DNA of 64,000 bases, from contig JAFXPU010000002.1 in assembly GCA_017527675.1 (NCBI GenBank), forward strand, positions 6,400-70,399, given 5' to 3'. The translations under genes were made by a program, and so were the position numbers. Of the stretch, positions 29,075 to 54,798 are shown piece by piece (within the stretch, counting starts at the first letter, position 1; the number at the start of each line of letters is the position of its first letter). A model generated the notes under the pieces. The model was not told where the DNA came from and ran no database searches. It worked only from the letters and a program-made list of their open reading frames with translations. Origin of the DNA: Bacilli bacterium (GTDB lineage Bacteria; Bacillota_I; Bacilli_A; RF39; UBA660).

Positions 29075-29151
29075 GGGGAATTAGCTCAGCTGGCTAGAGC
29101 ACCTGCCCTGCACGCAGGGGGTCAAGGGTTCGAATCCCTCATTCTCCACCA
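29075..29151 (+). tRNA. tRNA-Ala (anticodon UGC)
   Basis: GGGGAATTAGCTCAGCTGGCTAGAGCACCTGCCCTGCACGCAGGGGGTCAAGGGTTCGAATCCCTCATTCTCCACCA. G3:U70 alanine identity pair; anticodon stem CCTGC/GCAGG; loop CCTGCAC with anticodon TGC. Confidence 0.8.
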
Positions 29152-31397: not shown

Positions 31398-31956
31398 TAT
31401 TATTGGTATAAGTGGTAGTCCTAGAATTAATAAAGGATCATCATATAACTATTTAAAAAGAGTAACTAACAAAATAATAAGTAGTTATATATATAATAGT
31501 AAGGACCTTAAATTAATTAAAAAAAGCGATACAATTATTTTTTCTTTTCCTTTATTTGTTGATTGTCTGCCTTCACATTTCTTAAAATTCTTAATAGAAT
31601 TAGATAATAATAAAATAACTAATAAAAATATCTATGTAATATGTAATTTAGGTTTTTATGAAGGAAAACAAGGTAATATAGCTATTGAGATTATGAAGAA
31701 TTGGTGTCACAGAACCAATAATAATTATATGGGCGCTTTAGTAATTGGTGGAGGTCCATTATTTAACTATCCTGTTATTAAACTTAAACCAAATCACTAT
31801 TTAAAAAAACTAAGTGATTGTGCTATTAATAGTAAATTATTTAACGATAAATATATAGCTCCCCTATTACCTAGATGTATTTACTATAGATGTGGTAATA
31901 TGAGTTTTAAAAATGATATAAAGAAAAATGTAGTCAAAAAGAAAACCATTATTTAA
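31390..31956 (+). CDS. Flavodoxin-family protein
   Basis: Overlaps the previous gene by 8 nt; similar size and layout. Confidence 0.45.
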   Translation: MSNIIGISGSPRINKGSSYNYLKRVTNKIISSYIYNSKDLKLIKKSDTIIFSFPLFVDCLPSHFLKFLIELDNNKITNKNIYVICNLGFYEGKQGNIAIEIMKNWCHRTNNNYMGALVIGGGPLFNYPVIKLKPNHYLKKLSDCAINSKLFNDKYIAPLLPRCIYYRCGNMSFKNDIKKNVVKKKTII

Positions 31957-31961
31957 ATAAT
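31936..31961. terminator. Bidirectional hairpin overlapping convergent stop codons
   Basis: AAAACCATTA-TTTAAA-TAATGGTTTT, a perfect 10-bp stem. Confidence 0.5.
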
Positions 31962-32345
31962 GGTTTTTTCATTTTCATCTTTCATAGGCATCACAATATA
32001 TTCTGCACCATCACTATTAGTAATATAAGCATCACTATTAATATTCTTTATAAGGTTAAAATCACTTTTGTCTAGTTTGTCAAGGTGCTTTTCTAACAAT
32101 GATTTATCAATATTATTACCTTTTATAGTATAAATATATACGTTCTTATCTAAATAAAGAAAATCACAACTATTATTGTCTTTTAAATAATATATTGGTC
32201 TTAAATTATTCTTTTTAGCATTTAGCAAATCTTTAAATGATTGAACAAAGATAATATTTTTAGAAAATAGTCTAGGAATATTAACTATTTCTACTAGAAT
32301 GTTATCATACTTTTTTAAAGTATCTTTAATTAATTTATTTCCCAT
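31953..32345 (-). CDS. Hypothetical 130-aa protein, last gene of the TasA/SipW-like cluster
   Basis: Start overlaps the stop of the SipW-like paralog by 11 nt. Confidence 0.4.
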   Translation of the reverse strand: MGNKLIKDTLKKYDNILVEIVNIPRLFSKNIIFVQSFKDLLNAKKNNLRPIYYLKDNNSCDFLYLDKNVYIYTIKGNNIDKSLLEKHLDKLDKSDFNLIKNINSDAYITNSDGAEYIVMPMKDENEKTII

Positions 32346-33540
32346 TAATATTTCCTTTTACTAAATCCTTAAACCAAATAGTTGGATAAGCTATTTTTTT
32401 AACTTTAAAGTTATTATAAATACCTATTAAATCTTTTTTAGAAATATATTTATATGTATATTTATTATTTGTTTTAGTCTTTTTAACATATAAACTAACT
32501 ACATCATCTTCATTAACTTCCTTTAAAGCAATACGATCAATAATAATTTTATTCTTTGATTTATATGCTATAATATCACCTTTTTCATAATCATCATATT
32601 TTAGTCCTTTATAGATAATAATAGCATCACCTTTTTCAATTTTAGGGCCAATTGCTGATGTATCTACACCAATTAAATGATATGAGAAAATACCAGATAT
32701 TAAACCAACAAAGATAGTTATAATAATAATTAAAGGTATATCTAGTAAGAATACTCTTAAAGTATTTAATTTTTTATTTGGTTTTTTATTCTCAGGATTC
32801 TTTTCATATTCTTTTTCTTTAACATAGTATGTAATCATACGACTACCATATATATATAATAATGTTGGGAAACATATATTAATAATACTAGTTAAATAGT
32901 TACCTAAATCTGGAACAGATGGCACTAAATAAATATATAATCCTAAAGTTATAACATATATTAAACATGGTAAGTAACCAACTTTATCTGTAAAATATGT
33001 TAATACAATATTTTTAAATATAACTGGTATAATAACAACTGTTAAGAAAATAAACATATTTTCAGCTGTTACATCAAATGTATAAAAACATAAACTAATA
33101 TCAAAGAAGATAATAATTAGTATACCAAGCAATTTAGCATAATTATATTCACGATTATTAGTAATATAAATATATCTAAATACTTCTAAGGCTGTTACAC
33201 TTATAAGTGGAGCCCAGATGTTTTTTAGAATACTTACAAATCTTAAGGAATAAGAATTTCTTAAAAATCCAGTAAATAATCCAAGTAAATATATAAAAGT
33301 GAAATAGATAAATATTCCAATAATAAATTCATAGATTATTTTTTTAGTTATTTTAGTTATTTTTATTTTTTTATAATCATAAATAAATATACTTATAATA
33401 GTAATTATTAGAATGAAGAATGCACTTAATGTATGTGCTAAATTAGGTAACTTTGGAACAATTAAAATAAAATAAATAAATGTATAAATGAAGGTAGCTG
33501 TTAAGACTAATAAATTTTTAACTGTATTTTTATTTATCAC
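32335..33540 (-). CDS. SipW-like (S26B-type) signal peptidase paralog fused to a polytopic membrane domain; probably catalytically degenerate
   Basis: 401 aa. About 8 TM helices (aa 1-270) followed by a peptidase-like fold GVDTSAIGPKIEKGDAIIIYK...IIIDRIAL. It is homologous to 52948..54135, but Ser-Met is replaced by Ala-Ile and the HRI His by Asp. Confidence 0.55.
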   Translation of the reverse strand: MINKNTVKNLLVLTATFIYTFIYFILIVPKLPNLAHTLSAFFILIITIISIFIYDYKKIKITKITKKIIYEFIIGIFIYFTFIYLLGLFTGFLRNSYSLRFVSILKNIWAPLISVTALEVFRYIYITNNREYNYAKLLGILIIIFFDISLCFYTFDVTAENMFIFLTVVIIPVIFKNIVLTYFTDKVGYLPCLIYVITLGLYIYLVPSVPDLGNYLTSIINICFPTLLYIYGSRMITYYVKEKEYEKNPENKKPNKKLNTLRVFLLDIPLIIIITIFVGLISGIFSYHLIGVDTSAIGPKIEKGDAIIIYKGLKYDDYEKGDIIAYKSKNKIIIDRIALKEVNEDDVVSLYVKKTKTNNKYTYKYISKKDLIGIYNNFKVKKIAYPTIWFKDLVKGNINGK

Positions 33541-33548
33541 TTTAACAC

Positions 33549-34247
33549 CTACTTTTCAACATAGACAATCTGATATTCAAGACTAAGCATTTGAGCTTCA
33601 TCTGGTAAATCAGAGGCCTCTATATCAGTTCTAAATTTTAAAACAAACTTAATTGTCTTTTTACTATGTGCACTTAGTGTATCATTTATATCTATTTTTG
33701 TTCCATCTTTATACGTAATTTCATAATTTAAATATCTTTTTTGTCTAGTTGTTAAACCTTTATTAATTATTTCAAATATTTTAGCATCATGAGAACCGCT
33801 ATTAACTATATCAACTGTAAATTCATAATAGTCACCTGGTTCTTCTAATTTAACTTCATAATAAATATCTGTTTTATTATTAGCTATTTTGGCTTTAGTA
33901 ATTGGTTCAACTGAACCATCTTTTTCTTTTAGATTTTCAAATTCAATATGCCAATCTAAATCTTTAATTTCGGTTGTTCCTGTTTCAACTGGAATATATA
34001 CAGCAGGCAAGACACGACCTGGTTCTTTATCTGGCTTTTGAGGTTCTGGTTCAGGTTGTGGTTTATCTGGTTCAACCGGTTTAGGTTCATTTCTTTTTAT
34101 AACTTTTATACCTAAATTAAAGGCTAAAGAGGCATATGCAATAGATATTAAAATTAAAACAACAATAAATGATAAAAAGTATACTGGTTTAGCTTTAGTA
34201 TCTTCTATTTCAATGTCATCTATTTCCTTTTTTACTTCCTCATTCAT
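33549..34247 (-). CDS. Membrane-anchored TasA/camelysin-like domain protein
   Basis: 232 aa. TM anchor FLSFIVVLILISIAYASLAF, a Pro-rich spacer (EPKPVEPDKPQPEPEPQKPDKEP), then a domain aligning with the giant protein N-domain (EPGDYYEFTVDIVNSGSHDAKI ... LSLEYQIVYVEK). Only 8 nt gap to the SipW-like gene. Confidence 0.5.
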   Translation of the reverse strand: MNEEVKKEIDDIEIEDTKAKPVYFLSFIVVLILISIAYASLAFNLGIKVIKRNEPKPVEPDKPQPEPEPQKPDKEPGRVLPAVYIPVETGTTEIKDLDWHIEFENLKEKDGSVEPITKAKIANNKTDIYYEVKLEEPGDYYEFTVDIVNSGSHDAKIFEIINKGLTTRQKRYLNYEITYKDGTKIDINDTLSAHSKKTIKFVLKFRTDIEASDLPDEAQMLSLEYQIVYVEK

Positions 34248-34299
34248 ATTATCACCTATTGTTATAATTTTACCATAAATAAGCTTTTTTTTCTATATA

Positions 34300-34336
34300 T
34301 GAAAAAAAAAGATGAATTATTAATTCATCTTTTTTC
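34300..34336 (-). terminator. Intrinsic terminator downstream of the giant gene
   Basis: AGATGAATTA/TAATTCATCT hairpin flanked by a T9 run on the minus strand (A9 at 34301-34309). The T run at 34328-34336 also allows plus-strand function. Confidence 0.7.
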
Positions 34337-34339
34337 GTT

Positions 34340-37300
34340 TTACATCATAAATTCAAGAATGCAGTATTCATATTGGTCATCAACGGCAGGTACTATCTTG
34401 ATTTGGTAATTTCTTTCAGTATCAGATGTTGCAGATCCAGCTGTACGAGCATTTGTTGAACCTGTAAATTTACCATCATAGAAGTTGAATGCACCATTAC
34501 CACGAGATATACCATAACCAGTTGTTGTACCTATTGCTTCAATATATGGATCAATTGTTGATGTTGTAGTTGAATCAAAACCAGTGTTTTCTTTAATACC
34601 TAATGTTATAGAACCACTAGTTGAATTATCATCTATTCTTACACCATATGCTGTAGCAGCATGAGCATAAATATTACCAGTTTCAATTGTATATGAACCA
34701 TTATTAACAAACGCACCATAAGCTGATGTTGTACCATTTACATGATAATCAGCATTACGTGTTACTAATGTTCCTTTATCCACATAGACACCATATGTAT
34801 TAACTGAATCAGTTGAATTAAATTCACCACCATCAACTGTAATATTACTATTAGTATTATCTGCATAAATACCAAAGGCATTATTAGCTCTATTAATATT
34901 AATTTCAATATTACTGATTGTTGATGAATTAGAAGAATTATCAAGTATAGCATACATTCTCTCAGCTTTATTCATTGTAAATGTATCTCCATTAGATGTT
35001 AAGATAGCTGTATTATATATACCAGCTTCATATCTATAATAATATGTTCCATTTTCATAAGTACGATTTAAAGTATAATCATTACCAGTAGTATTTAATG
35101 TACCACTATTGCTAATAATTCTTACATAATTATTAGTACCTGAATAAGTATCTGTAAATACAACCGTATTATTATTCAATGTTAAAATACCACTATTACT
35201 TATCATATTAAATTCAGAATAATTACCATAACTATGTGTAATATTAGCTTTCTTAATTGTTGTTGTACCTGTATTAGAAATAGTTCCTTTAATATCTTTA
35301 ATATTTGTATTACTAATACTTAATGTACCATTTGTTTTAGTATTGTTAATATTACCAGTTATTTCTGTATCAGTTATTGTTACATTAGGTGTTGAATTAA
35401 TATAAATTGAATTTGTACCTTGTAATATAGAATCACTAATTGTATTTGTTTTAGTTGAATTATCATATATTACATAATTACTTCCTTTAACAGTTGAATC
35501 ACTGATTGTATATTTTCCTGAATTTATAATTGCTTGATTACGTGAAATATTTGTAGCATAAGTTATTGTTAATACTCCATTTTCATCATTATCAACAGCA
35601 TTATAATTTTCTAATTCAATATTACTAATTGTTAAATTATCTTTATTAATAAGTGCTGTAACAGATAAACTGTTGCTTAATTTTGAATCATTATTTGTAT
35701 CTAAATTTGTAATAACTAATGTACCATTGTTGGTAATTGATTTTGTCATATTAAGATTATGACCATGTAAATCAATAGTAATTGTCTTACCTGTTGGAAT
35801 TGTTACAGCATATGACAAGTTAGCATCAGCATTAAATTCTAATGTTGCACCATCATCTGCTAAATCAATAGCCGTTTGTAAATTAGAACGTGGTTCTGAA
35901 GGATTACTACTATCTATAATGAAAGGTTGTTCTAACACAAGATAGATTTCCTTAATAAATTCTGAGGCATAGATTGGTTCAACTTCATAGCCATACATTC
36001 TCTTATTATATAAGTTTGGATTAGCTATATAACCAGATCCACCTCCAGCTCCACCATGACCGCGGTTAGATCCACCACCACCGTAGTAACCACCACCGCC
36101 ACCGGCGCCGCCGTAGCCTGAATTACAGAAATTAGATCCTTGGCCAAATGAACCATAGCCACAACTACCATTAGCTAATTTACCACCTGATGTTTGTGTA
36201 GCACCGGTACCATTATATGAGGTGTATGAATTATTATATCCATCGTAACCAGAGTTACCTTTATAACCACCAGCATTTCCACCTGGTGAAGTAGTACTAG
36301 AACCTCCAGCTCCACCACCACCAGCAGCTACGATTATAATTGCATCTTTATTACTTTCAAGTGTTGATAATAATCCTGAGGCTGTAGCAATGTGTGTTGC
36401 TCCACCACCGCCATATGACCATTGGCCGCCGCCTGAGCCACCATTACCACCGCCGTTGTAACCGCCATCATATTGAGTTCCAACACCACCAACATTAATA
36501 TATAATGTTTCACCAGCAGTTAAATCAATATAACCTTCTGAATATCCACCATAACCACCATTTGAGCCTCCACCTTGAGCACCCCATGCTTCTAATCTAT
36601 ATGTTCCTGTACAAGGAACAGTAAATGTATTTTCAGCATTTTCAGGTAAATATGAATATTCGTGATTTTGTTCACATACTCCCTCAACAGTTTCACCAAC
36701 ATAAGTAATTTTAGCATAACCATTATTCATTTTTGCATAATGACTAATTGGATCCTCAGATACACTTGTTGTTGAATATGTTCTATATTTTTGATTATCT
36801 AATGATATTTCCCCAGCATTACTTTCAAATATTTCATAACCACTTCTAACATTTGAAATAATACTATTAACAGCTTCATTAGTACCAATAATATGACCAG
36901 AATATATATTTACACTTGCATTAGAAGAATATATACCAAATAAACCACCATTAACATATGGATCAGTTATATCATTTTCATCTTCTAAATTACCGATTGT
37001 TACATATATCGTTTCACTAGCTTGTTGTATACCATAAATTGGAGCTATTATTGTTCCTTTATTTAAGTTTAATGTTGTTGAACTATATGCAGGATAAGAA
37101 TACATATATACACCAACATTACCTGATGTTATTTCTCCACCATTAATGTTTATTGTTTCATGACTTTGTGAATAATAACCCGGACTACTATAACGGTATA
37201 TACCATAAGCATCTGCACCTGGTGTTGTAATTATCGTATTACCATTTATTTCTAGGTAACCACGTTCATCATTTATACCAAATGCGTTACTTGCACCAGC

Positions 37301-40300
37301 ATTGATTGTTACATCTGTTAATGTTACTGGAGCATATTTATATATACCAGAAGCATTATCTGCAGTTATAGTAATATCACTTATATTACAGTTAGATTCT
37401 GATGTACAATATATTGCATAATAATCTCTATTAGTTGCAGTTGTGATTACTTCGGTATCACTACCACTGATAGTTAAATTATCATATTGTGATCTAATTG
37501 TATGTTCACCACCAGTAAATGTTCCACCAGTAATAGTTATTGTTCCTTTTGGATTCTTATAAGAATCACTATAAATAGCTGAACTATTTGTCGATGTAAT
37601 AGTACCATCTTCAACTTTTACTTTTGTACCATATCCAGCTAACCTAATTGATTCTGCTGTTGTTTGAATTGAACCATCTTTCATTTCTAACTCACTATTT
37701 TGACCATTTAGATAAATAGCAACATTTGTTAAATCAAATGAACCATTATTCATAATTATCTTTTGAGCTGAATCAAGATAGATTCCACGATATCCTTCAA
37801 ATGTTGGATTATTTTGTAATGTTATTGTTCCTGTTCCAGATGAACCATAAATAGAACTTCCAGCAGATTTTAGATGAGCACCATCTAATACCATTATTCC
37901 TTTGTTTTCAATAGTATTAGTAATAGTATTATCTAATAAACCTGAACCATTATCGTAAATAGTTAAAGTTCCTTCATTAACAAGTGGTTGAGTCATTGTT
38001 AATGTTTTACCATTCATATTAATAGTAATATTTTTTGAACTTGGAATTGTTGCACCAGATTGTACAAAAGCAGATGACTTAACTAAAATTGTTCCTGTAT
38101 CTTCAATTGCACCAATTGCTGCAGTAAATGAATTGTATTCATCACCATTTACTATTAAGAAGGCTTCTTTTGGAACTAGATAATTAACTATCCAAATATC
38201 AGTTGGAATTTGGTAACCATACATTTCTCCACTAATTATATTTACATCTTTTATGTAGCCTGAGCCACCGCCGCCAGATCCGGCAATGTCTGAATTAACA
38301 CCAGAACTACCACCACCGTAGTAGCCACCGCCACCACCAGATGAATAGTCTGTTCCATTTGCACCTTTACCAAATGAACCAGCAGCACCATTATTATATG
38401 TACCTTCACCAGCAGCACCACCTGCAGTTTGAGTACCACCACCAGCTAATTTAGTTAACGATGGTTTAGACTGACCACCATGGCCACCTTCATTACCACC
38501 ACCAGATCCACCTTGAGCATTGTATGATCCGTAGCTACCACCGCCACCACCACCGGCAACAATGATAATATCATCTCTATTATTTTCAAATGTAGTAAGT
38601 AAGCCAGATGATTTAGCTATATGAGTAGCTCCACCACCAGCATAATAGTTATCACCAGTAGAATTACCACCACCATTATAGCCACCTGTTGAACCAACAC
38701 CTTGACCACCTACATTAATATATAGAGTATCTCCAGCAGTTAAATTAATTTTACATGTTGAGTAACCACCATAACCACCATTTGGTGATCCACCTTGAGC
38801 ACCCCATACTTCTAATTCGTATGTTCCTGTTTCAGTAACATTAAATGTTTGTTCTCCATTTGTAAAACTAAATGTTTCAGTTTCATCTTCAGCAATGAAT
38901 GTTATCTTAGCATAACCGTTTCCTTGTTTAGCTTTCTTACTAACTGGATCCTCTGATACTTCTTCTGTTGAATTTGTAATTATATTACCAGTTACTGAAG
39001 AACTCTCTTGTACTGTAGCAATATCATATGCTTCACGAGTTGAAGAGAAATCACTATTATATCCAGCAGAACTTCCTCTTAAACGTCCTGAATAGAAATT
39101 AGCAGTACCAGCTTCTTTATAGATACCATATGTTCCACCTGATACATATGGATCATAGATATCATTCTCATTATTTAAATTACCAATAGTTGTATATACA
39201 GTGCTAGATGTTTGTTGAATACCATAATTCTTACCTGTTATAGAACCATTATTCATATTAAGAGTTGTTGAACTATAAGAAGGATAAGAATACATATATA
39301 CACCAACATTACCTGATGTTATTTCAATATCATTAATAGTAATTGTTTCATAACTTTGTGAATAATAACTTGGACTACTATAACGGTATATACCAAAAGC
39401 ATTTGAACCTGGTGTATTAATTACTGTATTACCATTTATTTCTAAGTAACCGCGTTCATCATTAATACCAAATCCATTGCTTGCGCCAGCATTGATTGTT
39501 ACATCTGTTAATGTTACTGGAGCATATTTATATATACCAGAAGCATTATCTGCAGTTATGGTAATATCACTTATAATGCAATTAGAATCTGATGAACAAT
39601 ATATTGCATAATTATCTCTATTTGTTGCGGTTGAAATAACCTTTGTATCGCTACCACTAATAGTTAAATTATCATATTGTGATCTAATTGTATGTGTTCC
39701 ACCAGTAAATGTTCCACCAGTTATATTAATTGTTCCTTTTGGATTCTTGTAAGAATCACTATAAATAGCTGAATTATTCGTTGATGTTACAGTACCATTT
39801 TCAACTGTAAGTTTTGTATTGTAACCAACTAATCTAATTGATTCACTACCAGTTGATATTTCTCCATTTTTCATCTCAAATTCACTGTTTTGAGCATTAA
39901 GATAAACACCTACACCTGTAGTATTAATTGTTCCGTTATTCATGATAACCTTTTGAGCAGAATCAACATAAATACCATTATATCCTTCAATAGTTGGATT
40001 GTTTTGTAATGTTATTGTTCCTGTTCCAGCGTTTCCACGAATAGCGTAATTAGTAGATTTAATACTTGCATTATCAATTACTAATGTACCTTTATTGATA
40101 ATAGCATCAGATGCTTTATTATCAATTTTACCTGTTAATCCAGGTTCATTCATTATCGTCAATGTTCCTTCATTAGTAATTGGTTGAGTCATTGTTAAAG
40201 TATGACCTTGTAGATCTAGAGTAATATTATTTTCACTTGGTACGGTTGCTAATTCTTGTAGACTTGCATTTTTAAATACATAAATTGTACCTGTATCCTC

Positions 40301-43300
40301 TACATCACCAATAGCAGCTTCAAGTGAATTATATTCAGTTCCGTTATATATCAAGAATGCTTCCTTATTAACTAAATAATTTACAGTCATTGAATTTCCA
40401 TAGTCAGAATAAGTATACATTACTTTATTGCTTAAGCGACTGTTGTTATTATAACCAGAACCTCCGCCACCAGCTGTAGCATAGTTGTTACCAGCAGCAC
40501 CACCACCGTAGTAACCACCACCACCGGCACCACCCATAATTTTATTTGAAATTGTTGATTCAGGACTACCACCTTTACCAAATGATCCATTTCCTAAATT
40601 ATTATTATAGGCAAAGTATCCAGGTCTATTTACTGTTGCACCAGTACCATAGTACTGTGGATAAGATGGAGATGGAACACCATCTGCAGCTCTGTAACCA
40701 CCGGCATCTCCACCAGAACCATATTCTGAAGAGCTCCAGTAACCAGAACCACCACCACCACCGGCAACAATTAAAATTGCTTCTTTATTATTTTCTAATG
40801 TTGATAACTCACCTGATGTTGTAGCAACATGTGTTGCTCCACCACCAGATCCAGAATAGAATCTTGTTGATGGATAAAGCATTACAGCATCTCCACCACC
40901 ATTATAACCACCTGGAATAGTAGTGTTATTATCATAACCTATTGTACCAGCACCACCAACATTAACATATAGTGTTTCACCAATACTTAATTCAATTTCA
41001 CCTGTAGCATATGAACCATATCCACCACGAATTGATTCACTATATGAACCACCTTGAGCACCCCATACTTCTATTTTGTATAAGCCAGCACATGGAGCAC
41101 TAAATGGTGCTTCTCCAGGTTCAGTAAATGAAGTAACAGAATTTTGTTCGCATACACCCTCAATAGTTTCGCCTAAATATGTTATCTTAGCATAACCATT
41201 ATTCATTTTTGCATATTCACTAATCGCTTCATCAGAAACATTATTAGTGACAATTGTTAAATTCTCTGATGTATTTTCATGTTCACTAGTAATTTCTTTT
41301 GCAGCACGTAATGCATTAAAATCTTGATTATATCCGCCTGATAAACCTCTTAAACGTCCTGAGTAGAAATTTGATGTACCACCATTTTTATATAATCCAA
41401 ATAATCCACCTGATACATATGGATCATAAATATCATTTTCAGCATTTGGATTACCAATTGTAACATATACAGTACTTGAAGCAGCATGGATACCATATGT
41501 ATCACCAACTACTGAACCATTATTCATTACTAATGTTGTTGTACTATAACTTTGTCCTGAGAACATATATATACCAACATTACCAGATTTAATATCAACA
41601 TCATTTATAGTTATAGTATTATAACTTTGACCATAATAACCTGGATTACTATAACGGTATATACCATAAGCACTACCTCCAGGTGTATTAATTATAGTAT
41701 CACCATTAATATTTAAATTACCACGTTCATCATTAATACCAAATGAATTATTAGCATTTGCATTTATTTCAACATCTGTTAATGTTACACTACTATATGC
41801 ATATACACCTGAGGCATTTTCAGCTGTCATTGTTGAATTTGTAATATTACAATCAGATTCAGAATAACAATATAAAACATACTTGTCATTACCTGAACCA
41901 GTAACAATCATATCCGTACCACTAACTGTTAAATTATCATAGTAAACTCTAACAGCACTTGATACACCAGTTATAACACTATCAGTTATCTTTATAGTTC
42001 CTCTTGGACTCTTATAAGAATCACTAAAGTAACCATAAGTACCTGTTGAAGTAATATTACTTCCATCAATTGATACCTTAGTATTATATCCTAATGTTCT
42101 AATTGCCTCATTTACTGCTGTAATAGAACTATCATTAACTTCTAATTGACAATTAGTATTTTCTAGTCTTATACCAACATTAGTTGCATTAATATCTGCT
42201 TCATTAACCACAAATTTTGAATTATCTTTGTTACATGTTAAAGCATTATAACTATTTATAGTTGTACCATCTAATGTTGCTGTTGTATTTGCATTAGTAA
42301 ATTGAATAGATGCACGTTGTCCATTATCAATAATATTCGTATCACCAATTGTTACATTTTTAGCAACTTCAATACCTTGAATATTACCACCACTAATAAC
42401 ATAATCTTCATGATTACTTAATAAAGCATATGTATCACTTTTTAAGTAAGAATCATTATCCATTGTAAATGTACCAACGTTATTAACAGCATAACCATTT
42501 TTAGCTTCAATACTAGAATTAGTAATATTTAATGTTCCATTATTATTAATAGTATTACTATTTGTAACTTGTTTTAAAATAATATTTTCAATAGTTAACT
42601 CGCCATCATTAGTAATTGGACTTGCACTTGTAATTGAACCTGGATTTTCAGATATATCATAGATTCTTAAAGTACCATTATTAGTTATTGGACTACCTGT
42701 TGTAATATTGTAACTTTGCATATTTATTTCAATATCATAATCTTCTCTTATTTCAATAGCATATGATGCCTCAAAATCTCTTACAATATTAACTGGTTTA
42801 CCCATATAGTTAGCTGTATCTATTGCATTTTGAAGATTGAAGAAATATTGAACATTTTCTCCACCATTTTCAATGATTGCAACAGCATTAGCTGGGTTAC
42901 CATTTAAGAAACTTCTTTGATATATTGTTCCAATTACTGGTTCTGTATAGAATGTATATCCACGAGGTAATGAATTAACTCCACCATTTAGAGTAAATTG
43001 ACCTTGTAAATATCCATCATAGAAGTTAAATGAGCCATTTTGTTCTAATGCTACTGTTGAACCAATAATAGCAATTGCTTCTGTTTCAATAGTTCCGTCA
43101 TTAACACCCATTGTTAAAGTTTTATTATTAACAAGACCAGTACCATCTGGATTATTAATAGTACCATTTAATAAAATCATAATACCATTATTAATAAATG
43201 CACCAGTTAAAGTATGACCACCTAAGTTGAAGGTTACATTCTTATTATTAGTTACATTTTCAGTTGTATCTTTAATAAGTTCAATTGTATCATTTTCATT

Positions 43301-49300: not shown

Positions 49301-50749
49301 ATCTGGTGTTAAGGCTTCTTTGTTTAATTTAGCTGAAATAAAAGCGTCTTGTAAATTGTAATAATAAACATCTTTTGTATATGGAGTTGACGTACGAGCA
49401 ACAGCACGTGATGGATTACGTACTAAATATATTCTTTGACAATTTCTTTCATCATTATGGTCAGCAAATACATAATAGTTTTCTGCTTTATCAGTATAAC
49501 CACCAACTAAACCTGATAAACCTTCAATATAACCATCATAGAAATAGAATTCAGAACCGTCTTTATTAGTTAAACCAACAGCATTACCAATTAAAGCAAT
49601 ACTATTTTCAACATAAACAAATCCATCATTTAAACCTAAATCCAAATGACCATAGTTTATAAAGGCTTCTTTGTCTTCTGTTCTAGCAACTACACGTCCA
49701 TTTGTTAAAGCAATATTACCAGCAGCTGAATTGGTAATCGTTCCATTTACTGTATGACCACCTAAGTTAAATACAAAATCGTCAGTAGTATTATTTACTG
49801 GATATTCTGTTGTATCTTTCAATAAATAAACTGTATTATCAGCAAAGTCAGCATGCTTAGCAGCATCAAAAGCATCTTGAATAGTTGGATAATATGTTGT
49901 CATAATACGAGCAACATAATCTCCTTCTTCCCAAGTAGCTTCAATTGTTACGTCTTCATCACCCATAGTAAATACATCATTAGTAAAATCATATGTTCCA
50001 TTTTCTTCTGGTGATGTAACTGTCCAACCCTTAAAGTTATATAATTCACGTGTTGGCATTGCAACTGTATATGTTTCATTTTTCTCAAGATAAATTCTTG
50101 TATCAGCTAAACGATTAGCATATACACCACCTTTAGGTTTAATTGTTAAAACATGTTGATTTTTTCTAGGTTCAGGCGTACATGTATTTTGTTTTTGAAC
50201 ATAATTAATATTAAAGAATAATTCTAGATGCACATCTTCTGTTGGATAATCTTCTAAAGGTAAATGATCTTTAAATTTAACTATAGCTTTAATCCATCTT
50301 CTTGTACCAGCATCAAGTGGATCACAAGGTAAGATTGGATCACCATTATCATAAGTAACATCAAAATCTAAATAAGCTTTTTGTTCATCAGTTAATTCAA
50401 ACTTATCAATAGATTCTACCATGGCATCAATAGAACCATCGTTTACTGTATATACCGTAAATTCATAAAAGTCGCCAGGTTGTTTTAAGTCAGCTTCAAA
50501 CTCAATACGGGTTTTAGCTCGATCGACAATTTTAGCATCATTTTCTGATTCAACTGAATCAATAGATTTTTCTACATCATCAAAATAGATAATCCAACTG
50601 CTCTTTTTAATTGTTGAATTACCATTAATTGATAATGTGCTTTTTAAAAATGCACTTCCTAAAGAAATAGACACTATTAAAAACAAGACTACGCTTGCTA
50701 TTATAGTGAATTTATTTAATTTTAATTTTAAAGCTAACTTCTTAATCAT
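34340..50749 (-). CDS. Giant (5,469 aa) secreted repeat protein: SipW-cognate-type signal peptide + TasA-like N-domain + Flg_new repeats + beta-helix-like repeats + three glycine-rich domains
   Basis: Uninterrupted 16,410-nt ORF. N-terminal KLNKFTIIASVVLFLIVSISLGSAFLKSTLSINGN then LKQPGDFYEFTVYTVNDGSIDAMV...LELFFNINYVQKQ (TasA/camelysin-like). Listeria/Bacteroides repeats (PTRELYNFKGWTV...ATW; CTFNHWEAS...AVWT). Hundreds of NxG/T-rich repeats of the parallel beta-helix type. Three Gly-rich modules (GGGATH...AGGGGGSGY). No LPXTG and no recognised C-terminal anchor. Confidence 0.9.
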   Translation of the reverse strand: MIKKLALKLKLNKFTIIASVVLFLIVSISLGSAFLKSTLSINGNSTIKKSSWIIYFDDVEKSIDSVESENDAKIVDRAKTRIEFEADLKQPGDFYEFTVYTVNDGSIDAMVESIDKFELTDEQKAYLDFDVTYDNGDPILPCDPLDAGTRRWIKAIVKFKDHLPLEDYPTEDVHLELFFNINYVQKQNTCTPEPRKNQHVLTIKPKGGVYANRLADTRIYLEKNETYTVAMPTRELYNFKGWTVTSPEENGTYDFTNDVFTMGDEDVTIEATWEEGDYVARIMTTYYPTIQDAFDAAKHADFADNTVYLLKDTTEYPVNNTTDDFVFNLGGHTVNGTITNSAAGNIALTNGRVVARTEDKEAFINYGHLDLGLNDGFVYVENSIALIGNAVGLTNKDGSEFYFYDGYIEGLSGLVGGYTDKAENYYVFADHNDERNCQRIYLVRNPSRAVARTSTPYTKDVYYYNLQDAFISAKLNKEALTPDLDSNFIVYAHRNFEAPYEIEIPENSRLFFDTMGHTVSIGNTVTNNGYFKILSSAEDDGKLKTSFTIINNGVMDIDDVDLVATTDSNVIQNNNTLNLDDTEITSKGGYGIYNNTDAVITFTEDTLIDSTGNYGLYNKSDNLVVDDGTIYGLYNTGSIVLDENTKLHVYKIDDRNYIPAITNTGTITMNAGEISTNYDTTMIYNRGTITVNDGTISSQTTGISNYYDGYGTVNANGGLITSQGNAISSGTVNVNNNGEIKSVNGIAISGATVNVYAGDVYSDNDTAISCGGQTVNVYGGLVKGENIGISSCNVNISAGEITGKNYGVYSNNSLTVTGGKVTSESRAVSVSSATISGGEVLSANDALVTTNLNISGGKVHSSEANAITVMGTGTITGSETDIYGENYGVYNKGSLTIGSFEDTDEDEPEDYPVIIGGAYGLYIDGPVTNFYDGILKGQVDGYEGRITGLPLACVGGEGEEEIDGNLYQTDFIVHYENWLKVGDTEYNSIDAASKAIGEGETGTITVIKDADLVFTQHFVDNGTEETGYKHITFDLNGHTITSTQTIYNDSDVTIVDDSNLGTIKPTRIAGITNRNKLTIEAGNYLSEVVDEVIINESGLLTINNAYFNVNKYAITNDANLVINDINIEESFAGINNRGNTTVHGGTITGSDMGISSPYNYNVGTVYVDGGTIFGENYGIGGAGATIHVDGGSVEANAHNALYSYYGSITVSNGEVKSNNSVAVVTAQVTNVSGGEVTGTMGIEHICYYSGWGGCYYHDINITGGKVKGTDSYGIHAIGAKLSIHAGEIIGEVDGVYTSTETQIGDDEKNVSIESPSLTGKRYGLNTTAYTKFFDGVLQGMEEPHNGLIGLIPDAYMIKDDYTYIDRDYYKTQYLVPVGNWLRVNGVEYNTLTNATAAIDSEGTIEVIADAYVDYEQELPYGKIITFDLNGHSVIMTQPLQTKGTNTIKDSVGNGGITNIRSNGNADGYNTAAVYNTGTLTIEGGTYNADQDYAINNGGTLTIDNLTINNYGGVYSSGTLTINGGTIEGTDTYSLDSWGTTTINGGTITSNVANSNAVAIQDGTTTINDGTITSTVGTAVSVTKGSYYALGHVVINGGTITGKTNGVANTNSGNTILITGGIITGEDNNGLNTSSDNCVITGGSIIGGAYGVYTTGTTILGVVEDNSIDITQPMIQGTFYGLYIDGGTTNFYDGILKGTTEAEYGIISNIPPHAQIFPDTEIIDGETYKVKYLIMESVIAYNRETGVEYTNLQEAINDADTDQTVVLVANVPLYYSVTNNNTKHFNLDLHGYTISTNKTITNNGNITLINDSENEANIKTSSAINLINNNGTLNINNIKLTNVSSSNYIINNTSNLVINNSRMNAINAIYNTNSLDITSSNIVASKIAINNTKNVTITGGNYSGENYSIYSNDNSQATVTVVGNGINTVLDGNIESIRTTLDVTDTNIIIGSNGSISNSSNSIATFERVNVTNTNGGSISNSATMTINNSNINLGSPQNYNYSDTYVAIYNSGTMDINNTNIKVDETNTYKYYVKGISNTGSLTLENESSLTVGHAEQKTGKYYGIETSGSGNTLIDNSEINAVGSAENYGVYMVTANAQTTLLTGSINVSDAPTTYGAYINPGTFIMGHYDNSVDNVSQENPVIHSIGTTKGIGVDKENGSFNFYDGVIWASRFAKVGTTTLVEKDQEVTTYVDEETSYEYAWLENIKNDYGGQTVAVYRETYYSSLQLAINAYDEELGGVITLLKPISDETEIEVASGRKAVVNLGGYSITAKVTNNGTLDIYNGTIMNFDDYAVVNNGTFNMGQNDEAVSSVSIRIISENIAVQNNNTFNMYDGYIEGSQAMEGEITSIANLARVVTKHEEQSERKYLQSLSIDDIIAGNTDLYLTIDPKSGYYKGSKEVRLVYLKHGEPYLLIDNPSELEKHACTFNHWEASEAGILDGNTVTMNLSDATVTAVWTVNDDAVAKIGDEYYVSIAEALAAANENDTIELIKDTTENVTNNKNVTFNLGGHTLTGAFINNGIMILLNGTINNPDGTGLVNNKTLTMGVNDGTIETEAIAIIGSTVALEQNGSFNFYDGYLQGQFTLNGGVNSLPRGYTFYTEPVIGTIYQRSFLNGNPANAVAIIENGGENVQYFFNLQNAIDTANYMGKPVNIVRDFEASYAIEIREDYDIEINMQSYNITTGSPITNNGTLRIYDISENPGSITSASPITNDGELTIENIILKQVTNSNTINNNGTLNITNSSIEAKNGYAVNNVGTFTMDNDSYLKSDTYALLSNHEDYVISGGNIQGIEVAKNVTIGDTNIIDNGQRASIQFTNANTTATLDGTTINSYNALTCNKDNSKFVVNEADINATNVGIRLENTNCQLEVNDSSITAVNEAIRTLGYNTKVSIDGSNITSTGTYGYFSDSYKSPRGTIKITDSVITGVSSAVRVYYDNLTVSGTDMIVTGSGNDKYVLYCYSESDCNITNSTMTAENASGVYAYSSVTLTDVEINANANNSFGINDERGNLNINGDTIINTPGGSAYGIYRYSNPGYYGQSYNTITINDVDIKSGNVGIYMFSGQSYSTTTLVMNNGSVVGDTYGIHAASSTVYVTIGNPNAENDIYDPYVSGGLFGLYKNGGTSNFYSGRLRGLSGGYNQDFNALRAAKEITSEHENTSENLTIVTNNVSDEAISEYAKMNNGYAKITYLGETIEGVCEQNSVTSFTEPGEAPFSAPCAGLYKIEVWGAQGGSYSESIRGGYGSYATGEIELSIGETLYVNVGGAGTIGYDNNTTIPGGYNGGGDAVMLYPSTRFYSGSGGGATHVATTSGELSTLENNKEAILIVAGGGGGSGYWSSSEYGSGGDAGGYRAADGVPSPSYPQYYGTGATVNRPGYFAYNNNLGNGSFGKGGSPESTISNKIMGGAGGGGYYGGGAAGNNYATAGGGGSGYNNNSRLSNKVMYTYSDYGNSMTVNYLVNKEAFLIYNGTEYNSLEAAIGDVEDTGTIYVFKNASLQELATVPSENNITLDLQGHTLTMTQPITNEGTLTIMNEPGLTGKIDNKASDAIINKGTLVIDNASIKSTNYAIRGNAGTGTITLQNNPTIEGYNGIYVDSAQKVIMNNGTINTTGVGVYLNAQNSEFEMKNGEISTGSESIRLVGYNTKLTVENGTVTSTNNSAIYSDSYKNPKGTINITGGTFTGGTHTIRSQYDNLTISGSDTKVISTATNRDNYAIYCSSDSNCIISDITITADNASGIYKYAPVTLTDVTINAGASNGFGINDERGYLEINGNTVINTPGSNAFGIYRYSSPSYYSQSYETITINDIEITSGNVGVYMYSYPSYSSTTLNMNNGSITGKNYGIQQTSSTVYTTIGNLNNENDIYDPYVSGGTYGIYKEAGTANFYSGRLRGSSAGYNSDFSSTREAYDIATVQESSSVTGNIITNSTEEVSEDPVSKKAKQGNGYAKITFIAEDETETFSFTNGEQTFNVTETGTYELEVWGAQGGSPNGGYGGYSTCKINLTAGDTLYINVGGQGVGSTGGYNGGGNSTGDNYYAGGGATHIAKSSGLLTTFENNRDDIIIVAGGGGGGSYGSYNAQGGSGGGNEGGHGGQSKPSLTKLAGGGTQTAGGAAGEGTYNNGAAGSFGKGANGTDYSSGGGGGYYGGGSSGVNSDIAGSGGGGSGYIKDVNIISGEMYGYQIPTDIWIVNYLVPKEAFLIVNGDEYNSFTAAIGAIEDTGTILVKSSAFVQSGATIPSSKNITINMNGKTLTMTQPLVNEGTLTIYDNGSGLLDNTITNTIENKGIMVLDGAHLKSAGSSIYGSSGTGTITLQNNPTFEGYRGIYLDSAQKIIMNNGSFDLTNVAIYLNGQNSELEMKDGSIQTTAESIRLAGYGTKVKVEDGTITSTNSSAIYSDSYKNPKGTITITGGTFTGGEHTIRSQYDNLTISGSDTEVITTATNRDYYAIYCTSESNCNISDITITADNASGIYKYAPVTLTDVTINAGASNAFGINDERGYLEINGNTIITTPGADAYGIYRYSSPGYYSQSHETININGGEITSGNVGVYMYSYPAYSSTTLNLNKGTIIAPIYGIQQASETIYVTIGNLEDENDITDPYVNGGLFGIYSSNASVNIYSGHIIGTNEAVNSIISNVRSGYEIFESNAGEISLDNQKYRTYSTTSVSEDPISHYAKMNNGYAKITYVGETVEGVCEQNHEYSYLPENAENTFTVPCTGTYRLEAWGAQGGGSNGGYGGYSEGYIDLTAGETLYINVGGVGTQYDGGYNGGGNGGSGGGQWSYGGGGATHIATASGLLSTLESNKDAIIIVAAGGGGAGGSSTTSPGGNAGGYKGNSGYDGYNNSYTSYNGTGATQTSGGKLANGSCGYGSFGQGSNFCNSGYGGAGGGGGYYGGGGSNRGHGGAGGGSGYIANPNLYNKRMYGYEVEPIYASEFIKEIYLVLEQPFIIDSSNPSEPRSNLQTAIDLADDGATLEFNADANLSYAVTIPTGKTITIDLHGHNLNMTKSITNNGTLVITNLDTNNDSKLSNSLSVTALINKDNLTISNIELENYNAVDNDENGVLTITYATNISRNQAIINSGKYTISDSTVKGSNYVIYDNSTKTNTISDSILQGTNSIYINSTPNVTITDTEITGNINNTKTNGTLSISNTNIKDIKGTISNTGTTTIKKANITHSYGNYSEFNMISNSGILTLNNNTVVFTDTYSGTNNYVRIISNSGTLNTTGNDYTLNRTYENGTYYYRYEAGIYNTAILTSNGDTFTMNKAERMYAILDNSSNSSTISNIEININRANNAFGIYADNTNSNITVDGGEFNSTDSVNTYGVYVDKGTLVTRNADYHVNGTTSAYGAFVNNGSYTIETGNIYAHAATAYGVRIDDNSTSGSITLGIKENTGFDSTTTSTIDPYIEAIGTTTGYGISRGNGAFNFYDGKFTGSTNARTAGSATSDTERNYQIKIVPAVDDQYEYCILEFMM
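35900..42300 (-). repeat. Three tandem coding repeats of about 2.2 kb each (about 750 aa) inside the giant gene
   Basis: The nucleotide landmark CCTTGAGCACCCCATRCTTCTA recurs at about 36595, 38815 and 41075. Protein units 2 and 3 are about 85% identical (TITLQNNPT(I/F)EGY...YDPYV(S/N)GG...EVWGAQGG...GGGSGY); unit 1 is about 65%. Boundaries are approximate. Confidence 0.7.
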
Positions 50750-50812
50750 ATAAACCCATACCTTTACTATCTTATTATCTTATTATACATAATAATTTTA
50801 TCACATTTTAGC

Positions 50813-50842
50813 CTAAAAAAAAAGCAAACTTGATAAGTTTAC
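50813..50842 (-). terminator. Intrinsic terminator between the 249-aa gene and the giant gene
   Basis: Minus-strand hairpin GTAAACTT-ATC-AAGTTTGC followed by T8-9 (A run at 50815-50823). Overlaps the upstream gene's stop codon. A TATAAT element lies about 40 nt upstream of the giant gene ATG. Confidence 0.5.
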
Positions 50843-51588: not shown

Positions 51589-51595
51589 ACTTCAC

Positions 51596-52351: not shown

Positions 52352-52382
52352 AATTACTCCTAACTAATTCTATTATACTACA

Positions 52383-52940
52383 TTATTTCTTGATTAAAAT
52401 AACTTTATATGTTTTATCATTACTTAATTTAACAATTGTATTTGAATCAATATCATCTGTTAATTTTTTCTCATCTATTAAATCTAAATGTTTGTTAATT
52501 TTTTCAACAAACAAGGATTTACTTTTATCATTTTTATAAAAAACATAATATAATAATTCCTTATCAGTTTTAACCATAAAAACACTAGAATTATCCTCGC
52601 CTAAGTACATAATAGGTGTATCTAATTGCTCATGAGCTTTTACAAGATCATTAAAACTTTTTACCTTTAAAACATCATCATTAGCAAAATTATATTCGTT
52701 TTCCAAATAAACAATATCTGAATTATATATACGCAATATTCTTTTTATAGTTCTTAAATAATTAGATTCGTCGTCTGTTTTTCTAATCATTAAATATACT
52801 AAATAAATAATTAGAATTGCCATAATAGTTACAAAAACAATGGCATAATTAATAGCATCATTTAAAAATGATATAAATGAAGCCAAAAATAATCCTAATA
52901 TTAAAAATCCTAATACTATTATTTTATTTGTATTATTCAT
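52383..52940 (-). CDS. Small membrane protein (2 TM) of unknown function
   Basis: 185 aa; start 8 nt after the SipW-like stop. Confidence 0.45.
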   Translation of the reverse strand: MNNTNKIIVLGFLILGLFLASFISFLNDAINYAIVFVTIMAILIIYLVYLMIRKTDDESNYLRTIKRILRIYNSDIVYLENEYNFANDDVLKVKSFNDLVKAHEQLDTPIMYLGEDNSSVFMVKTDKELLYYVFYKNDKSKSLFVEKINKHLDLIDEKKLTDDIDSNTIVKLSNDKTYKVILIKK

Positions 52941-52947
52941 ATTTCAC

Positions 52948-54135
52948 CTACTTAAACATAATAGCCGGATATGCTATATAAGGTATACTAAAAACAACTT
53001 TACCTTTAATTTGCTCTTTTTTTACATATCCTTTATCAGCTACATTATTATAATCACCTTTGGTAATAAATGTATTATCACTATTAACTTTAATAATACG
53101 ATGAACAATTAATTCTTTTTCATCAGTTTTAAAGGCAATAATGTCGCCTTCTTTTAACTTGTCAACACTAAAATTTTTAGATATTATAACCGCATCCCCA
53201 ACATTTAATCTTGGAGTCATTGATCCAGTTTCAATACCCACTAATTTATAAGGCCCAATACCCGCAATTAAGCAGTATATTATAACAGCTGCAACAGCAA
53301 ATGGAATATCACTCAATTTAAAGAATGAACGTTTTTCTTCTTCTAATTTGACTTTTGAATCCGTTTGTCTAGACATTGTTATAGTGATTAAAAATGGTAA
53401 TAATAATAGGCCCAAACTATTAATATAATCATTTAAATCAGGTACAATTGGTACAATAAATATATATAATTCAGTTAAAAATCTATATAATAATGGTCCT
53501 TTATAATCAGCATAGTATACTGCATAAGTACACATTATATTTTTAAGAATTGATGGTAACATAATCGTAGATACTACATCAAACAATTCATAACTATCAG
53601 TTAAAACATCAAATCTTATATTAATAATTATATCTAATAAAGCTAATATTAAGGTAAAAACAATAATATTTGCTTTACTCTTTTTATTAGCTTTAATATA
53701 AACAAATCTAAGTATTTCCTCTAATATAATAATTAATATTAAAAAAAATGTATTATTTATAATTGATAATGGTTTTAAGGAATAAGCATTTTTTAAAAAA
53801 GACGAAGTAAAACCAATACCATATATTAAAGCAAAATACAAAGTTGCAAAAATAGCTATAATTGATATAAATACTTTATTGTGTTTTAAATTAACCTTTC
53901 TTTTAAAGCCATAAAAATAAATAGCCAAAGAAGTAATAATCATTAACACAGATGTAGTTATAGCATCAGCATATTTTAATACATTTGAGTACACAAAAAA
54001 TCTATATATTAAAATATATATAAGAATACTTGTTAAAATAACTAAATTGTAAATATTTTTCTTCTTCTTCTCTATCATACTATCCCTATATTCCATTATA
54101 ATTTTATCATTTTTTTGATATAAAAAAAAGAGCAT
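52948..54135 (-). CDS. SipW-like (S26B-type) signal peptidase fused to a polytopic membrane domain; catalytic Ser and His present
   Basis: 395 aa. About 7-8 TM helices, then IETGSMTPRLNVGDAVIISK (GSMxP Ser box) and ELIVHRII (His box) as in SipW/Sec11-type peptidases. Begins 9 nt after the TasA-like gene. Confidence 0.6.
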   Translation of the reverse strand: MLFFLYQKNDKIIMEYRDSMIEKKKKNIYNLVILTSILIYILIYRFFVYSNVLKYADAITTSVLMIITSLAIYFYGFKRKVNLKHNKVFISIIAIFATLYFALIYGIGFTSSFLKNAYSLKPLSIINNTFFLILIIILEEILRFVYIKANKKSKANIIVFTLILALLDIIINIRFDVLTDSYELFDVVSTIMLPSILKNIMCTYAVYYADYKGPLLYRFLTELYIFIVPIVPDLNDYINSLGLLLLPFLITITMSRQTDSKVKLEEEKRSFFKLSDIPFAVAAVIIYCLIAGIGPYKLVGIETGSMTPRLNVGDAVIISKNFSVDKLKEGDIIAFKTDEKELIVHRIIKVNSDNTFITKGDYNNVADKGYVKKEQIKGKVVFSIPYIAYPAIMFK

Positions 54136-54144
54136 TTAATACTC

Positions 54145-54717
54145 TTATTGATTTTGAACATAGTCTAATTCATATGATTTTGAGAATGTGAAATCAGCAC
54201 CTGGTAAATCTTCAGCATTTATATCAAATGGGAATTCAACTCTAATAACAACATGTTGATAATTAGCTGATCCTGGAGCTAAAGTACTACCTTCAGCTGG
54301 CATACCAGTTACAGAATAAGTTACATAAGCTAAAGATGAAACATCATCACCATTTTCTCTTAAATCATCTAATAAAGCTACTAATGTACCATCATTAGCA
54401 ATATCAAAACCAAATTCAAAAAATTGACCTGGTTCTTTTAAAGTTACATTAAAAGTAATTTTAGTATCATCTGTTGTATCAATTACAGCAGTATTTCCAG
54501 GTTCAGATGTTGTTGCATCTGGATTTAAATAAGAACCGTTTGTAATAGCTAAATTTTTGAAATGTACATTCCAACCTACTCTTGAAATCTTAGCGTCACC
54601 ATTGATACTTAAAGTTGTTTTTAACTCTGCATAACCAAAACTAATTCCTGCAATTAATGCTATAAATAAAGCAATAAATAAATATCTTTTTTTGAAAACA
54701 ACGTTTTCTCTTTTCAT
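54145..54717 (-). CDS. TasA/camelysin-like secreted protein with a SipW-cognate-type signal peptide
   Basis: Signal FIALFIALIAGISFGYAELKTTLSINGD, then LKEPGQFFEFGFDIANDGTLVALL (compare B. subtilis TasA NLKPGDKLTKDFQFENNGSLAIKEV) and C-terminal YELDYVQNQ shared with the giant protein N-domain. Start moved to the ATG with AGAGGTG RBS (track start 54726 is a GTG). Confidence 0.55.
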   Translation of the reverse strand: MKRENVVFKKRYLFIALFIALIAGISFGYAELKTTLSINGDAKISRVGWNVHFKNLAITNGSYLNPDATTSEPGNTAVIDTTDDTKITFNVTLKEPGQFFEFGFDIANDGTLVALLDDLRENGDDVSSLAYVTYSVTGMPAEGSTLAPGSANYQHVVIRVEFPFDINAEDLPGADFTFSKSYELDYVQNQ

Positions 54718-54798
54718 TACACACACCTCTATCTTAGTACATTATAACATATTAATTCAATTATTGTTATATTTTTTTGAAAAAAAACAAAAAAAGAG

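Follow-up and report, generated by a model that had tools for sequence, protein, structure and literature searches.

The window examined here is a stretch of 64,000 nucleotides from an uncultured, low-GC Bacilli bacterium of the rumen (assembly GCA_017527675.1, contig JAFXPU010000002.1). We found that nine co-oriented genes at positions 31953-54726 of this window form one module, whose conservation extends to genomes of related Bacilli from rumen and gut. We consider it probable that this locus encodes a chaperone-free, donor-strand-complemented, cell-anchored surface fibre of the type known from AbpX of Pyrodictium abyssi and from the haloarchaeal Tafi system. This reading is favoured because a domain of about 150 residues found in three of the proteins (hereafter, the D domain) is homologous to AbpX-type subunits, because the segment preceding it has the features of a donor strand and of a peptidase cleavage site, because a signal peptidase is paired with a DUF5305 protein, and because the gene order is kept in other genomes.

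The D domain is common to a small protein of 193 amino acids (aa; D193), to residues 1-190 of a 5,469-aa giant, and to the C-terminal 145 residues of a 232-aa protein (D232). In pairwise BLASTP comparisons, D193 matched giant residues 1-200 with 30% identity (E=2e-20), which agrees with an earlier sequence-only reading of this DNA, in which the giant was said to share its N-terminal domain with the small secreted protein. D232 matched the giant N-terminus with 40% identity (E=1e-28). The remaining genes are also paired: the peptidase-like proteins SPI395 and SPI401 (395 and 401 aa) are 31% identical over their full length (E=3e-40), the 130-aa X130 matches the C-terminal half of the 185-aa X185 (E=6e-9), and Y251 and Y249 (251 and 249 aa) share 35% identity (E=8e-34). 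The locus therefore consists of two homologous triads with extras; each triad joins one D-domain protein to one peptidase-like and one DUF5305-like protein. D193, SPI395 and X185 make up triad 1, and D232, SPI401 and X130 make up triad 2, while the giant gene and both Y genes are positioned between them. The sequence-only reading had proposed nine co-oriented genes as a coherent module, and this proposal stood, as all open reading frames (ORFs) were found in place on the minus strand (Table 1) and their order is conserved in relatives.

In D193, a signal peptide with predicted cleavage after G-Y-A (residue 33 of the 193-aa ORF) is followed by the donor-strand-like segment ELKTTLSINGDAKI and then by a beta-sandwich. 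The giant N-terminus has the same order, with a signal peptide, predicted cleavage after G-S-A, the donor-strand-like segment FLKSTLSINGNSTI and the D domain. The AlphaFold2 (AF2) model of D193, with a predicted local distance difference test (pLDDT) score of 83.4, contains a transmembrane (TM) helix followed by a seven-stranded sandwich; residues 35-47, the donor-strand-like segment, had a pLDDT <50 and were left unplaced in this monomer model. Across 147 family representatives, the N-terminal motif is G(-3)YA(-1)/xL[ST][ST]xLxINGx3Ix4W, with Gly at -3 in 124 of them and either Ala or Ser at -1 in 126. Thus, the motif joins a classical -3/-1 peptidase site to an alternating, strand-like (amphipathic) pattern. 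Mature D193 has an isoelectric point (pI) of 4.14 and contains 15% Asp+Glu, which fits the description of the AbpX family; the D domain of the giant has a pI of 4.38 and 20% acidic residues.

The sequence-only reading had identified these domains with TasA and camelysin. At the level of existing family models this identity was not borne out. When the small proteins of the window were compared with Pfam and NCBIfam, the D domains gave no TasA, camelysin or TIGR04088 match at E<=1, and none of the three matched Peptidase_M73 (PF12389) at that threshold; D193 matched no model of either collection. PF12389 was detected below its threshold in 4 of 128 relatives (best E=5.6e-4, 20.2 bits against a cutoff of 22.5), and a phmmer search of PDB sequences with D193 found no match. 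At the level of the superfamily, on the other hand, the assignment held. The profile of the Bacilli D domains (alignment A5) was compared by hhalign with that of alignment A7, made from eight archaeal, Chloroflexi and Clostridia subunits that are encoded upstream of multi-TM peptidases, and the two aligned over 164 columns with a probability of 98.5% (E=3e-15). The probability was 95.7% (E=1e-8) when the signal peptides were removed and 93.6% (E=2e-7) when the donor strand was removed. A7, searched against PDB sequences, led to AbpX (9sj2_C, E=1.9e-13; 9rhp_A, E=8.4e-8). The alignment sets ELKTTLSINGDAKI on the AbpX segment WSETLSLSATISTG (AbpX residues W2-I12), and this segment recurs at the C-terminus of 9rhp_A, which looks like a self-complemented construct. 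Its C-terminal re-attachment in 9rhp therefore marks it as the AbpX donor strand. The D domain is thus likely to represent an AbpX-like branch of the TasA superfamily; because direct comparison with AbpX is weak, the link is a transitive one that runs through intermediate profiles.

An exhaustive profile search showed how large this family is, with 5,724 clusters (50% identity) at E<=1e-3. The D domain was N-terminal in all of the 150 best representatives, which were 175-6,386 aa in length, and 114 of these 150 were longer than 235 aa, i.e., bore a passenger. The passenger domains include DUF285, BspA-type leucine-rich repeats (LRR), Listeria-Bacteroides repeats, DUF6273, NAGPA and glycine-rich domains. 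The N-terminal D domain of the giant itself ranked eighth in a profile search of the whole library (P0023, E=3e-52). In two natural tandem proteins, P0022 (480 aa, D-D-D) and P0106 (328 aa, D-D), the signal peptide and the donor-strand motif occur in the first copy only, and the internal copies begin at profile positions ~41-50. Judging from these profiles, the Bacilli D clade is a large one that is invisible to Pfam, carries many passenger types of up to about 7,200 aa, and is newly recognized here.

The giant of our window is a 582-kDa protein (pI 4.4) encoded by an uninterrupted 16.4-kb ORF. After the D domain it has 10-11 repeat modules and three glycine-rich domains. Seven modules open with a helix-cap-like xYxTLxxAI, and ten NFYDGxLxG end motifs were found; a right-handed beta-helix of the pectate-lyase-like kind is plausible for these modules. 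They gave no Pfam match, and phmmer searches with a module and with the glycine-rich region found no match in the PDB. The C-terminal half contains three super-repeats of ~750 residues that are 45-59% identical and that each close in an ALK/LTK-type glycine-rich domain. Residues 2701-5469 matched PF12810 in three stretches (E=1.8e-84, 284 bits), so the parts that the sequence-only reading had called Gly-rich can now be specified. In animals, receptor kinases bind their ligands through this domain, whereas in the window it recurs as a module of a bacterial surface giant. Neither a TM helix nor a sorting signal or motif was found at the C-terminus, and the N-terminal D domain is therefore the sole visible means of attachment of the giant. 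In relatives, orthologous giants of 6,141-7,194 aa hold the same gene position on independent assemblies.

Both proteins of about 400 aa had been taken for SipW-type signal peptidases. Their S26 type was confirmed, SPI395 scoring 86.1 bits against TIGR02228 (E=2.2e-24, cutoff 51.85) and E=1.1e-7 against Peptidase_S26, and SPI401 scoring 43.4 bits, below the cutoff, against TIGR02228. The SipW label was not: SPI395 reached 67.3 bits and SPI401 31.5 bits against the SipW equivalog NF046067, whose cutoff is 190. The peptidase domain of SPI395 (residues ~280-395) stands behind a polytopic membrane domain with ~8-10 TM helices according to a hydropathy scan. In an alignment of 73 homologues taken from fetched loci (A2), S305, H345 and the GDNxD box, which reads GDNN in SPI395, were kept in every catalytic-type orthologue (~60, bacterial and archaeal). 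With its catalytic residues intact, SPI395 is an active-type archaeal/endoplasmic reticulum (ER) signal peptidase I (S26B). E140 and R143, which form an ExxR motif inside a hydrophobic segment, were invariant from Bacilli to Thermoproteota and also in the dead paralogs described below, which suggests that the membrane domain has a function of its own. No Pfam model covers this domain. A CPBP/CAAX protease was considered for it and ruled out, as the conserved motif is ExxR without a conserved His. Among the peptidase-profile matches there was also a 983-aa protein in Ruminococcus flavefaciens (L083, 5784-8735; L089, 5589-8540) in which the E/R motif and every catalytic residue are present; since its length is over double the usual one, a multi-TM signal peptidase seems to have been fused with another module in it.

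The gene that follows SPI395 probably encodes its partner. X185 matched the DUF5305 model PF17231 just under threshold (28 bits, cutoff 29, E=1.8e-6), and its orthologues have recorded PF17231 matches. It has two TM helices together with an alpha/beta domain in the cytoplasm but lacks the extracellular domain of longer homologues. We therefore read X185 as a minimal DUF5305-type accessory of the signal peptidase, analogous to TafG of the Tafi system.

Triad 2 has the same composition with a different character. The sequence-only reading had described SPI401 as a degenerate paralog, and indeed both the catalytic Ser (to Ala) and the catalytic His (to Asp) are lost together with the GDNN box, whereas E140/R143 are retained. 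Ten other loci, five from genomes or contigs and five metagenomic ones that include a locus from activated sludge, show the same losses (Ser to A/E/Y/T, His to D/E), which gives 11 loci with that of the window; these loci are 44-82% identical to one another. Because the same losses recur in 11 loci in proteins that are full-length and keep the E/R motif, SPI401 is best regarded as a maintained, catalytically dead pseudo-enzyme and not as a decaying copy. X130 is a paralog of the cytoplasmic domain of X185, i.e., of the C-terminal part of DUF5305 (PF17231, E=0.016), and a hydropathy scan found no hydrophobic segment in it, hence no TM helix. On every contig that reaches far enough, an X130 orthologue of 116-147 aa comes after the dead peptidase. 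In D232, directly upstream of SPI401, the N-terminus is cytoplasmic; next come a TM helix that ends in AYASLA, a spacer of 41 residues rich in Pro, Glu and Lys, and the D beta-sandwich. All of its orthologues share this architecture: AYASLA is conserved (YASLA in one), and the spacer is 30-70 residues of low complexity, mostly Pro-rich. Proteins of this anchor class are always encoded directly upstream of a dead peptidase, and the two are kept together in the 11 loci.

The lost catalytic residues and lost accessory TM helices do resemble decay, and triad 2 could be a functionless decaying duplicate, with the giant gene an assembly artefact or pseudogene. We think this very improbable. The dead peptidase is full-length and has kept its E/R motif through the same Ser/His losses in all of its loci, the activated-sludge one included, and the anchor-class architecture is conserved alongside it. 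Moreover, the giant ORF is unbroken over its 16.4 kb and has intact 6,141-7,194-aa orthologues on independent assemblies.

The Y proteins are confined to loci that also hold the dead-peptidase triad. Y251 spans the membrane once and carries, outside the cytoplasm, an alpha+beta domain that is NTF2/cystatin-like, and Y249 is its paralog. The idea that they are the split-off extracellular part of DUF5305 was rejected, since jackhmmer returned Y proteins only and the fold is NTF2/cystatin-like. On one contig from an activated-sludge metagenome (L097), we observed the set Y-Y, anchor-class D, dead peptidase, short DUF5305 and D, so it also exists outside animal guts.

The distribution of the locus was investigated in species-representative genomes, in which a scan with the peptidase alignment gave 459 relatives. 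Multi-TM peptidases of full length occurred in Bacilli, Erysipelotrichaceae and 'Tenericutes' metagenome-assembled genomes, and also in Chloroflexi, Clostridia, Archaeoglobales, Bathyarchaeia, Nitrososphaeria and Thermoproteota. In a census by ORF and hidden Markov model (HMM), 66 loci from these genomes contained 71 full-length peptidases. A D gene was directly upstream of 51 of the 71, a gene of the DUF5305-like jackhmmer family was directly downstream of 61, and 48 had both neighbours, so the co-conservation that the sequence-only reading had put forward as a check was obtained. The gene order was seen again, with giants of 6,141-7,194 aa, in related metagenomic contigs. Gut metagenomes of cattle, sheep, goat, deer and rabbit are the sources of related contigs. 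None of the outcomes named by that reading as fatal to it was established; two of them, proteins of about 400 aa that are not S26-type peptidases and genes not conserved together, were contradicted.

Based on these results, the fibre could be assembled as follows. After Sec export, SPI395 with X185 would cut D193 and the giant and thereby release their N-terminal strands, and each released strand would enter the open sandwich of the next subunit. D193 would form the shaft. The giant, which has no other anchor and whose passenger of 5,300 residues follows the D domain on its C-terminal side, would be a strand donor and the distal, adhesin-like tip. D232 would keep its TM helix, stand off the membrane on the Pro-rich spacer and take the last strand, and so terminate and anchor the fibre. 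More speculatively, SPI401 and X130 might bind the AYASLA junction of the anchor without cutting it and serve as a holding or assembly platform, a role suggested by their co-conservation with the anchor, and both Y proteins may have a helper role in this base module. A broader reading, which we advance tentatively, is that the D domain is a general plug-in tag for sortase-independent display in gut and rumen Bacilli, including Mollicutes-like lineages. D-tagged proteins, from 300-aa LRR/DUF285 proteins to 7,000-aa giants, would then be cut by the multi-TM peptidase and joined through donor-strand exchange to a common membrane-anchored stalk, and the dead peptidase with the truncated DUF5305 would be the platform that holds the anchor uncleaved and nucleates or terminates assembly.

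Several observations weigh against the fibre. Foldseek with the D193 model against the PDB gave nothing below E=1e-3, with generic adaptin-ear and immunoglobulin-like folds at E~3e-3. The D-family profile searched against PDB sequences gave insignificant fn3 matches and AbpX at E=0.85, and the D profile aligned with the AbpX sequence alone reached a weak 12.7% probability (E=2e-3). Position +2 is Leu/Ile in 134 and position +4 is Thr/Ser in 99 of the 147 representatives, and the AbpX signature of an aromatic residue at +2 and an acidic one at +4 is absent. The roles of tip, shaft and anchor were inferred from analogy and domain order. The AYA-S junction of D232 looks cleavable in principle, so the uncleaved anchor is an assumption. 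Finally, promoter and terminator scans of this AT-rich DNA found sites no commoner than in shuffled sequence.

With such weak structural similarity to solved fibre subunits, and without the calcium/aromatic donor-strand signature of AbpX, the D domain might form no fibre at all. It might instead be a membrane-proximal stalk or folding module of ordinary surface proteins exported by Sec, the peptidase serving only for maturation or release and the N-terminal segment being a recognition element for the peptidase. Passengers of diverse types on most D members (114 of the 150 best) are what one would expect of a generic N-terminal export or anchor module. Nevertheless, we hold a stalk to be unlikely. 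The AbpX-type homology runs through both the donor strand and the sandwich, and the alternating L/L/I is the pattern of a buried beta-strand, yet it stayed unplaced in the AF2 monomer. After cleavage, the giant would be left without attachment to the cell. Passenger-less subunits of 160-235 aa, for which a stalk offers no obvious purpose, adjoin almost every peptidase, and a dedicated paralog of the anchor class is present.

An anchored fibre is also to be distinguished from an extracellular matrix or lattice, in which D193 would form AbpX-like fibril networks (a biofilm hydrogel) with the giant and other D-tagged proteins woven in. AbpX makes para-crystalline fibril lattices and hydrogels (10.64898/2026.01.04.697558), TasA is a matrix protein, and the acidic composition is in common. 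However, the conserved TM-anchored D paralog with its spacer favours attachment to the cell, and the calcium-binding residues of the donor strand are not conserved. A matrix is thus rather improbable in our view, and it differs from the anchored fibre in the supramolecular outcome only.

Compared with known systems, the anchored fibre proposed here is closest to the products of AbpX loci, which encode a signal peptidase I with ten TM helices and a DUF5305 accessory alongside minor subunits, anchors and tip proteins; their donor strand is aromatic at position 2 and acidic at position 4, residues that are tied to calcium-mediated complementation (10.64898/2026.01.04.697558). Like the locus of the window, they combine an acidic subunit (a jelly-roll in AbpX, a predicted beta-sandwich in the window) having a Sec signal, a signal peptidase I site and an amphipathic N-terminal donor strand with a dedicated multi-TM TIGR02228-type signal peptidase I, a DUF5305 protein and extra subunit-like proteins predicted as tip or anchor, and they occur in Bacillota as well as archaea. 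Unlike them, the D clade of the window is divergent, lacks the aromatic (+2) and acidic (+4) residues and is linked via intermediate profiles only. The anchors of bacterial AbpX loci are SLH or LPXTG proteins, whereas D232 has an N-terminal TM helix and a Pro-rich spacer, and the putative tip of the window is a 582-kDa protein. A term search of the main text of the preprint found no mention of a dead peptidase paralog, a truncated DUF5305 or Y proteins.

In the Tafi system, TafA processing and fibre formation require TafD, whose proposed partner is TafG (DUF5305), and the model has TafC as tip, TafA as shaft and TafF as anchor, with the shaft strand entering the anchor (PMC11821415, PMC12337348). 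A tip-adapter-shaft-anchor order built by donor-strand exchange, a dedicated and required peptidase and a DUF5305 partner are the features that resemble our locus, and the duplicated peptidase/DUF5305 pairs noted in some genomes recall its two triads. In contrast, Tafi subunits are Tat-exported, TafD has four TM helices and an N-terminal peptidase domain, TafF is anchored by a C-terminal TM helix, TafC is a small two-domain protein, and no pseudo-peptidase is reported. The TapA-SipW-TasA system of B. subtilis, with which the sequence-only reading had drawn its analogy, has an ER/archaeal-type peptidase for a neighbouring subunit, an N-terminal donor strand and, according to the literature, the same superfamily. 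However, SipW, with its two TM helices, lacks a DUF5305 partner, TasA carries no passengers, and the locus of the window has neither a Peptidase_M73/TIGR04088 match nor a TapA-like protein. Type V pili of Bacteroidota (FimA/Mfa1) are alike in mechanism only, as strand exchange is licensed by proteolytic loss of an N-terminal segment and tip, shaft and anchor/terminator are separate subunits; they differ in their unrelated fold family, lipoprotein export, gingipain-type cleavage and Gram-negative outer membrane.

The general architecture has therefore already been characterized, in AbpX loci (2026 preprint) and, for the peptidase with DUF5305, in Tafi (2025). The sequence-only reading, which knew of no characterized example, was overtaken in part, on this general plan, by the 2025-2026 publications. 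In the searchable literature, we found no description of the Bacilli D clade and its scale, of giants as D-tagged passengers, or of a triad of pseudo-peptidase, anchor and truncated accessory with Y proteins.

It was not until 2022-2026 that donor-strand fibres of the TasA superfamily were established structurally, mainly in extremophilic archaea and Bacillus. The present locus indicates that machinery of the AbpX/Tafi type is widespread in uncultured Bacilli of animal guts. There, the D family seems to serve for mounting adhesin-like passengers of very diverse types, among them some of the largest proteins of bacteria, and mounting of this kind would explain how giants without a C-terminal anchor are retained on the cell. 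The conserved dead-peptidase module offers a starting point on fibre anchoring and termination, a gap in both the Tafi and the AbpX models. Family models are merited for the D domain and for the membrane domain of the peptidase.

Table 1. Features of the locus in window coordinates
Feature	Position	Strand	Remarks
D193 ORF	54145-54726	minus	193 aa; likely start 54717, giving 54145..54717
SPI395	52948-54135	minus	395 aa
X185	52383-52940	minus	185 aa
Y251	51596-52351	minus	251 aa
Y249	50839-51588	minus	249 aa
Giant	34340-50749	minus	5,469 aa
Giant residues 1-190	50180..50749	minus	signal peptide, donor-strand-like segment, D domain
ALK/LTK-type glycine-rich domain 1	40394..41089	minus	giant residues ~3221-3452; best PF12810 stretch
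ALK/LTK-type glycine-rich domain 2	38180..38842 (approximate)	minus	giant residues ~3970-4190; WGAQGG at 3982
ALK/LTK-type glycine-rich domain 3	35945..36637 (approximate)	minus	giant residues ~4705-4935; WGAQGG at 4722
D232	33549-34247	minus	232 aa
SPI401	32335-33540	minus	401 aa
X130	31953-32345	minus	130 aa

The start of the 193-aa gene is most likely the one chosen by the sequence-only reading, as homologues begin with MKRENV; the probable start of SPI395 lies ~13 codons inside its ORF, as judged from alignment with homologues. The window is very AT-rich (22-34% GC). A candidate extended -10-like site (ATAACA, an 18-nt spacer, and TATAAT with TG before it) lies at 54741-54770 on the minus strand, within the 72 bp left free upstream of the D193 start; promoter-like sites are no commoner here than in shuffled sequence. 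The locus is flanked by genes for an HD/HD_assoc phosphohydrolase (54799-55968, minus), a FIST-domain protein (56036-57202, plus) and a 230-aa protein (57181-57873, plus). These genes also stand beside the locus in its closest relatives (L001 and L002) and are absent beside distant ones; therefore, they are neighbours by descent and lie outside the module.

Other features of the window were noted in passing. About 3 kb downstream of the locus, there are two divergent tRNA genes, tRNA-Trp(CCA) at 28865-28938 (minus) and tRNA-Ala(TGC) at 29075-29151 (plus). A 986-aa protein encoded at 17138-20098 (minus) has VWA and bacterial TSP3 repeats and is probably a surface or adhesion protein; it gave no match to the D profile. 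A 427-aa protein encoded at 23060-24343 (minus) combines an ApeA N-terminal domain (4.5e-13) with an Apea-like HEPN domain (1.3e-6), which makes its gene a candidate for anti-phage defence.

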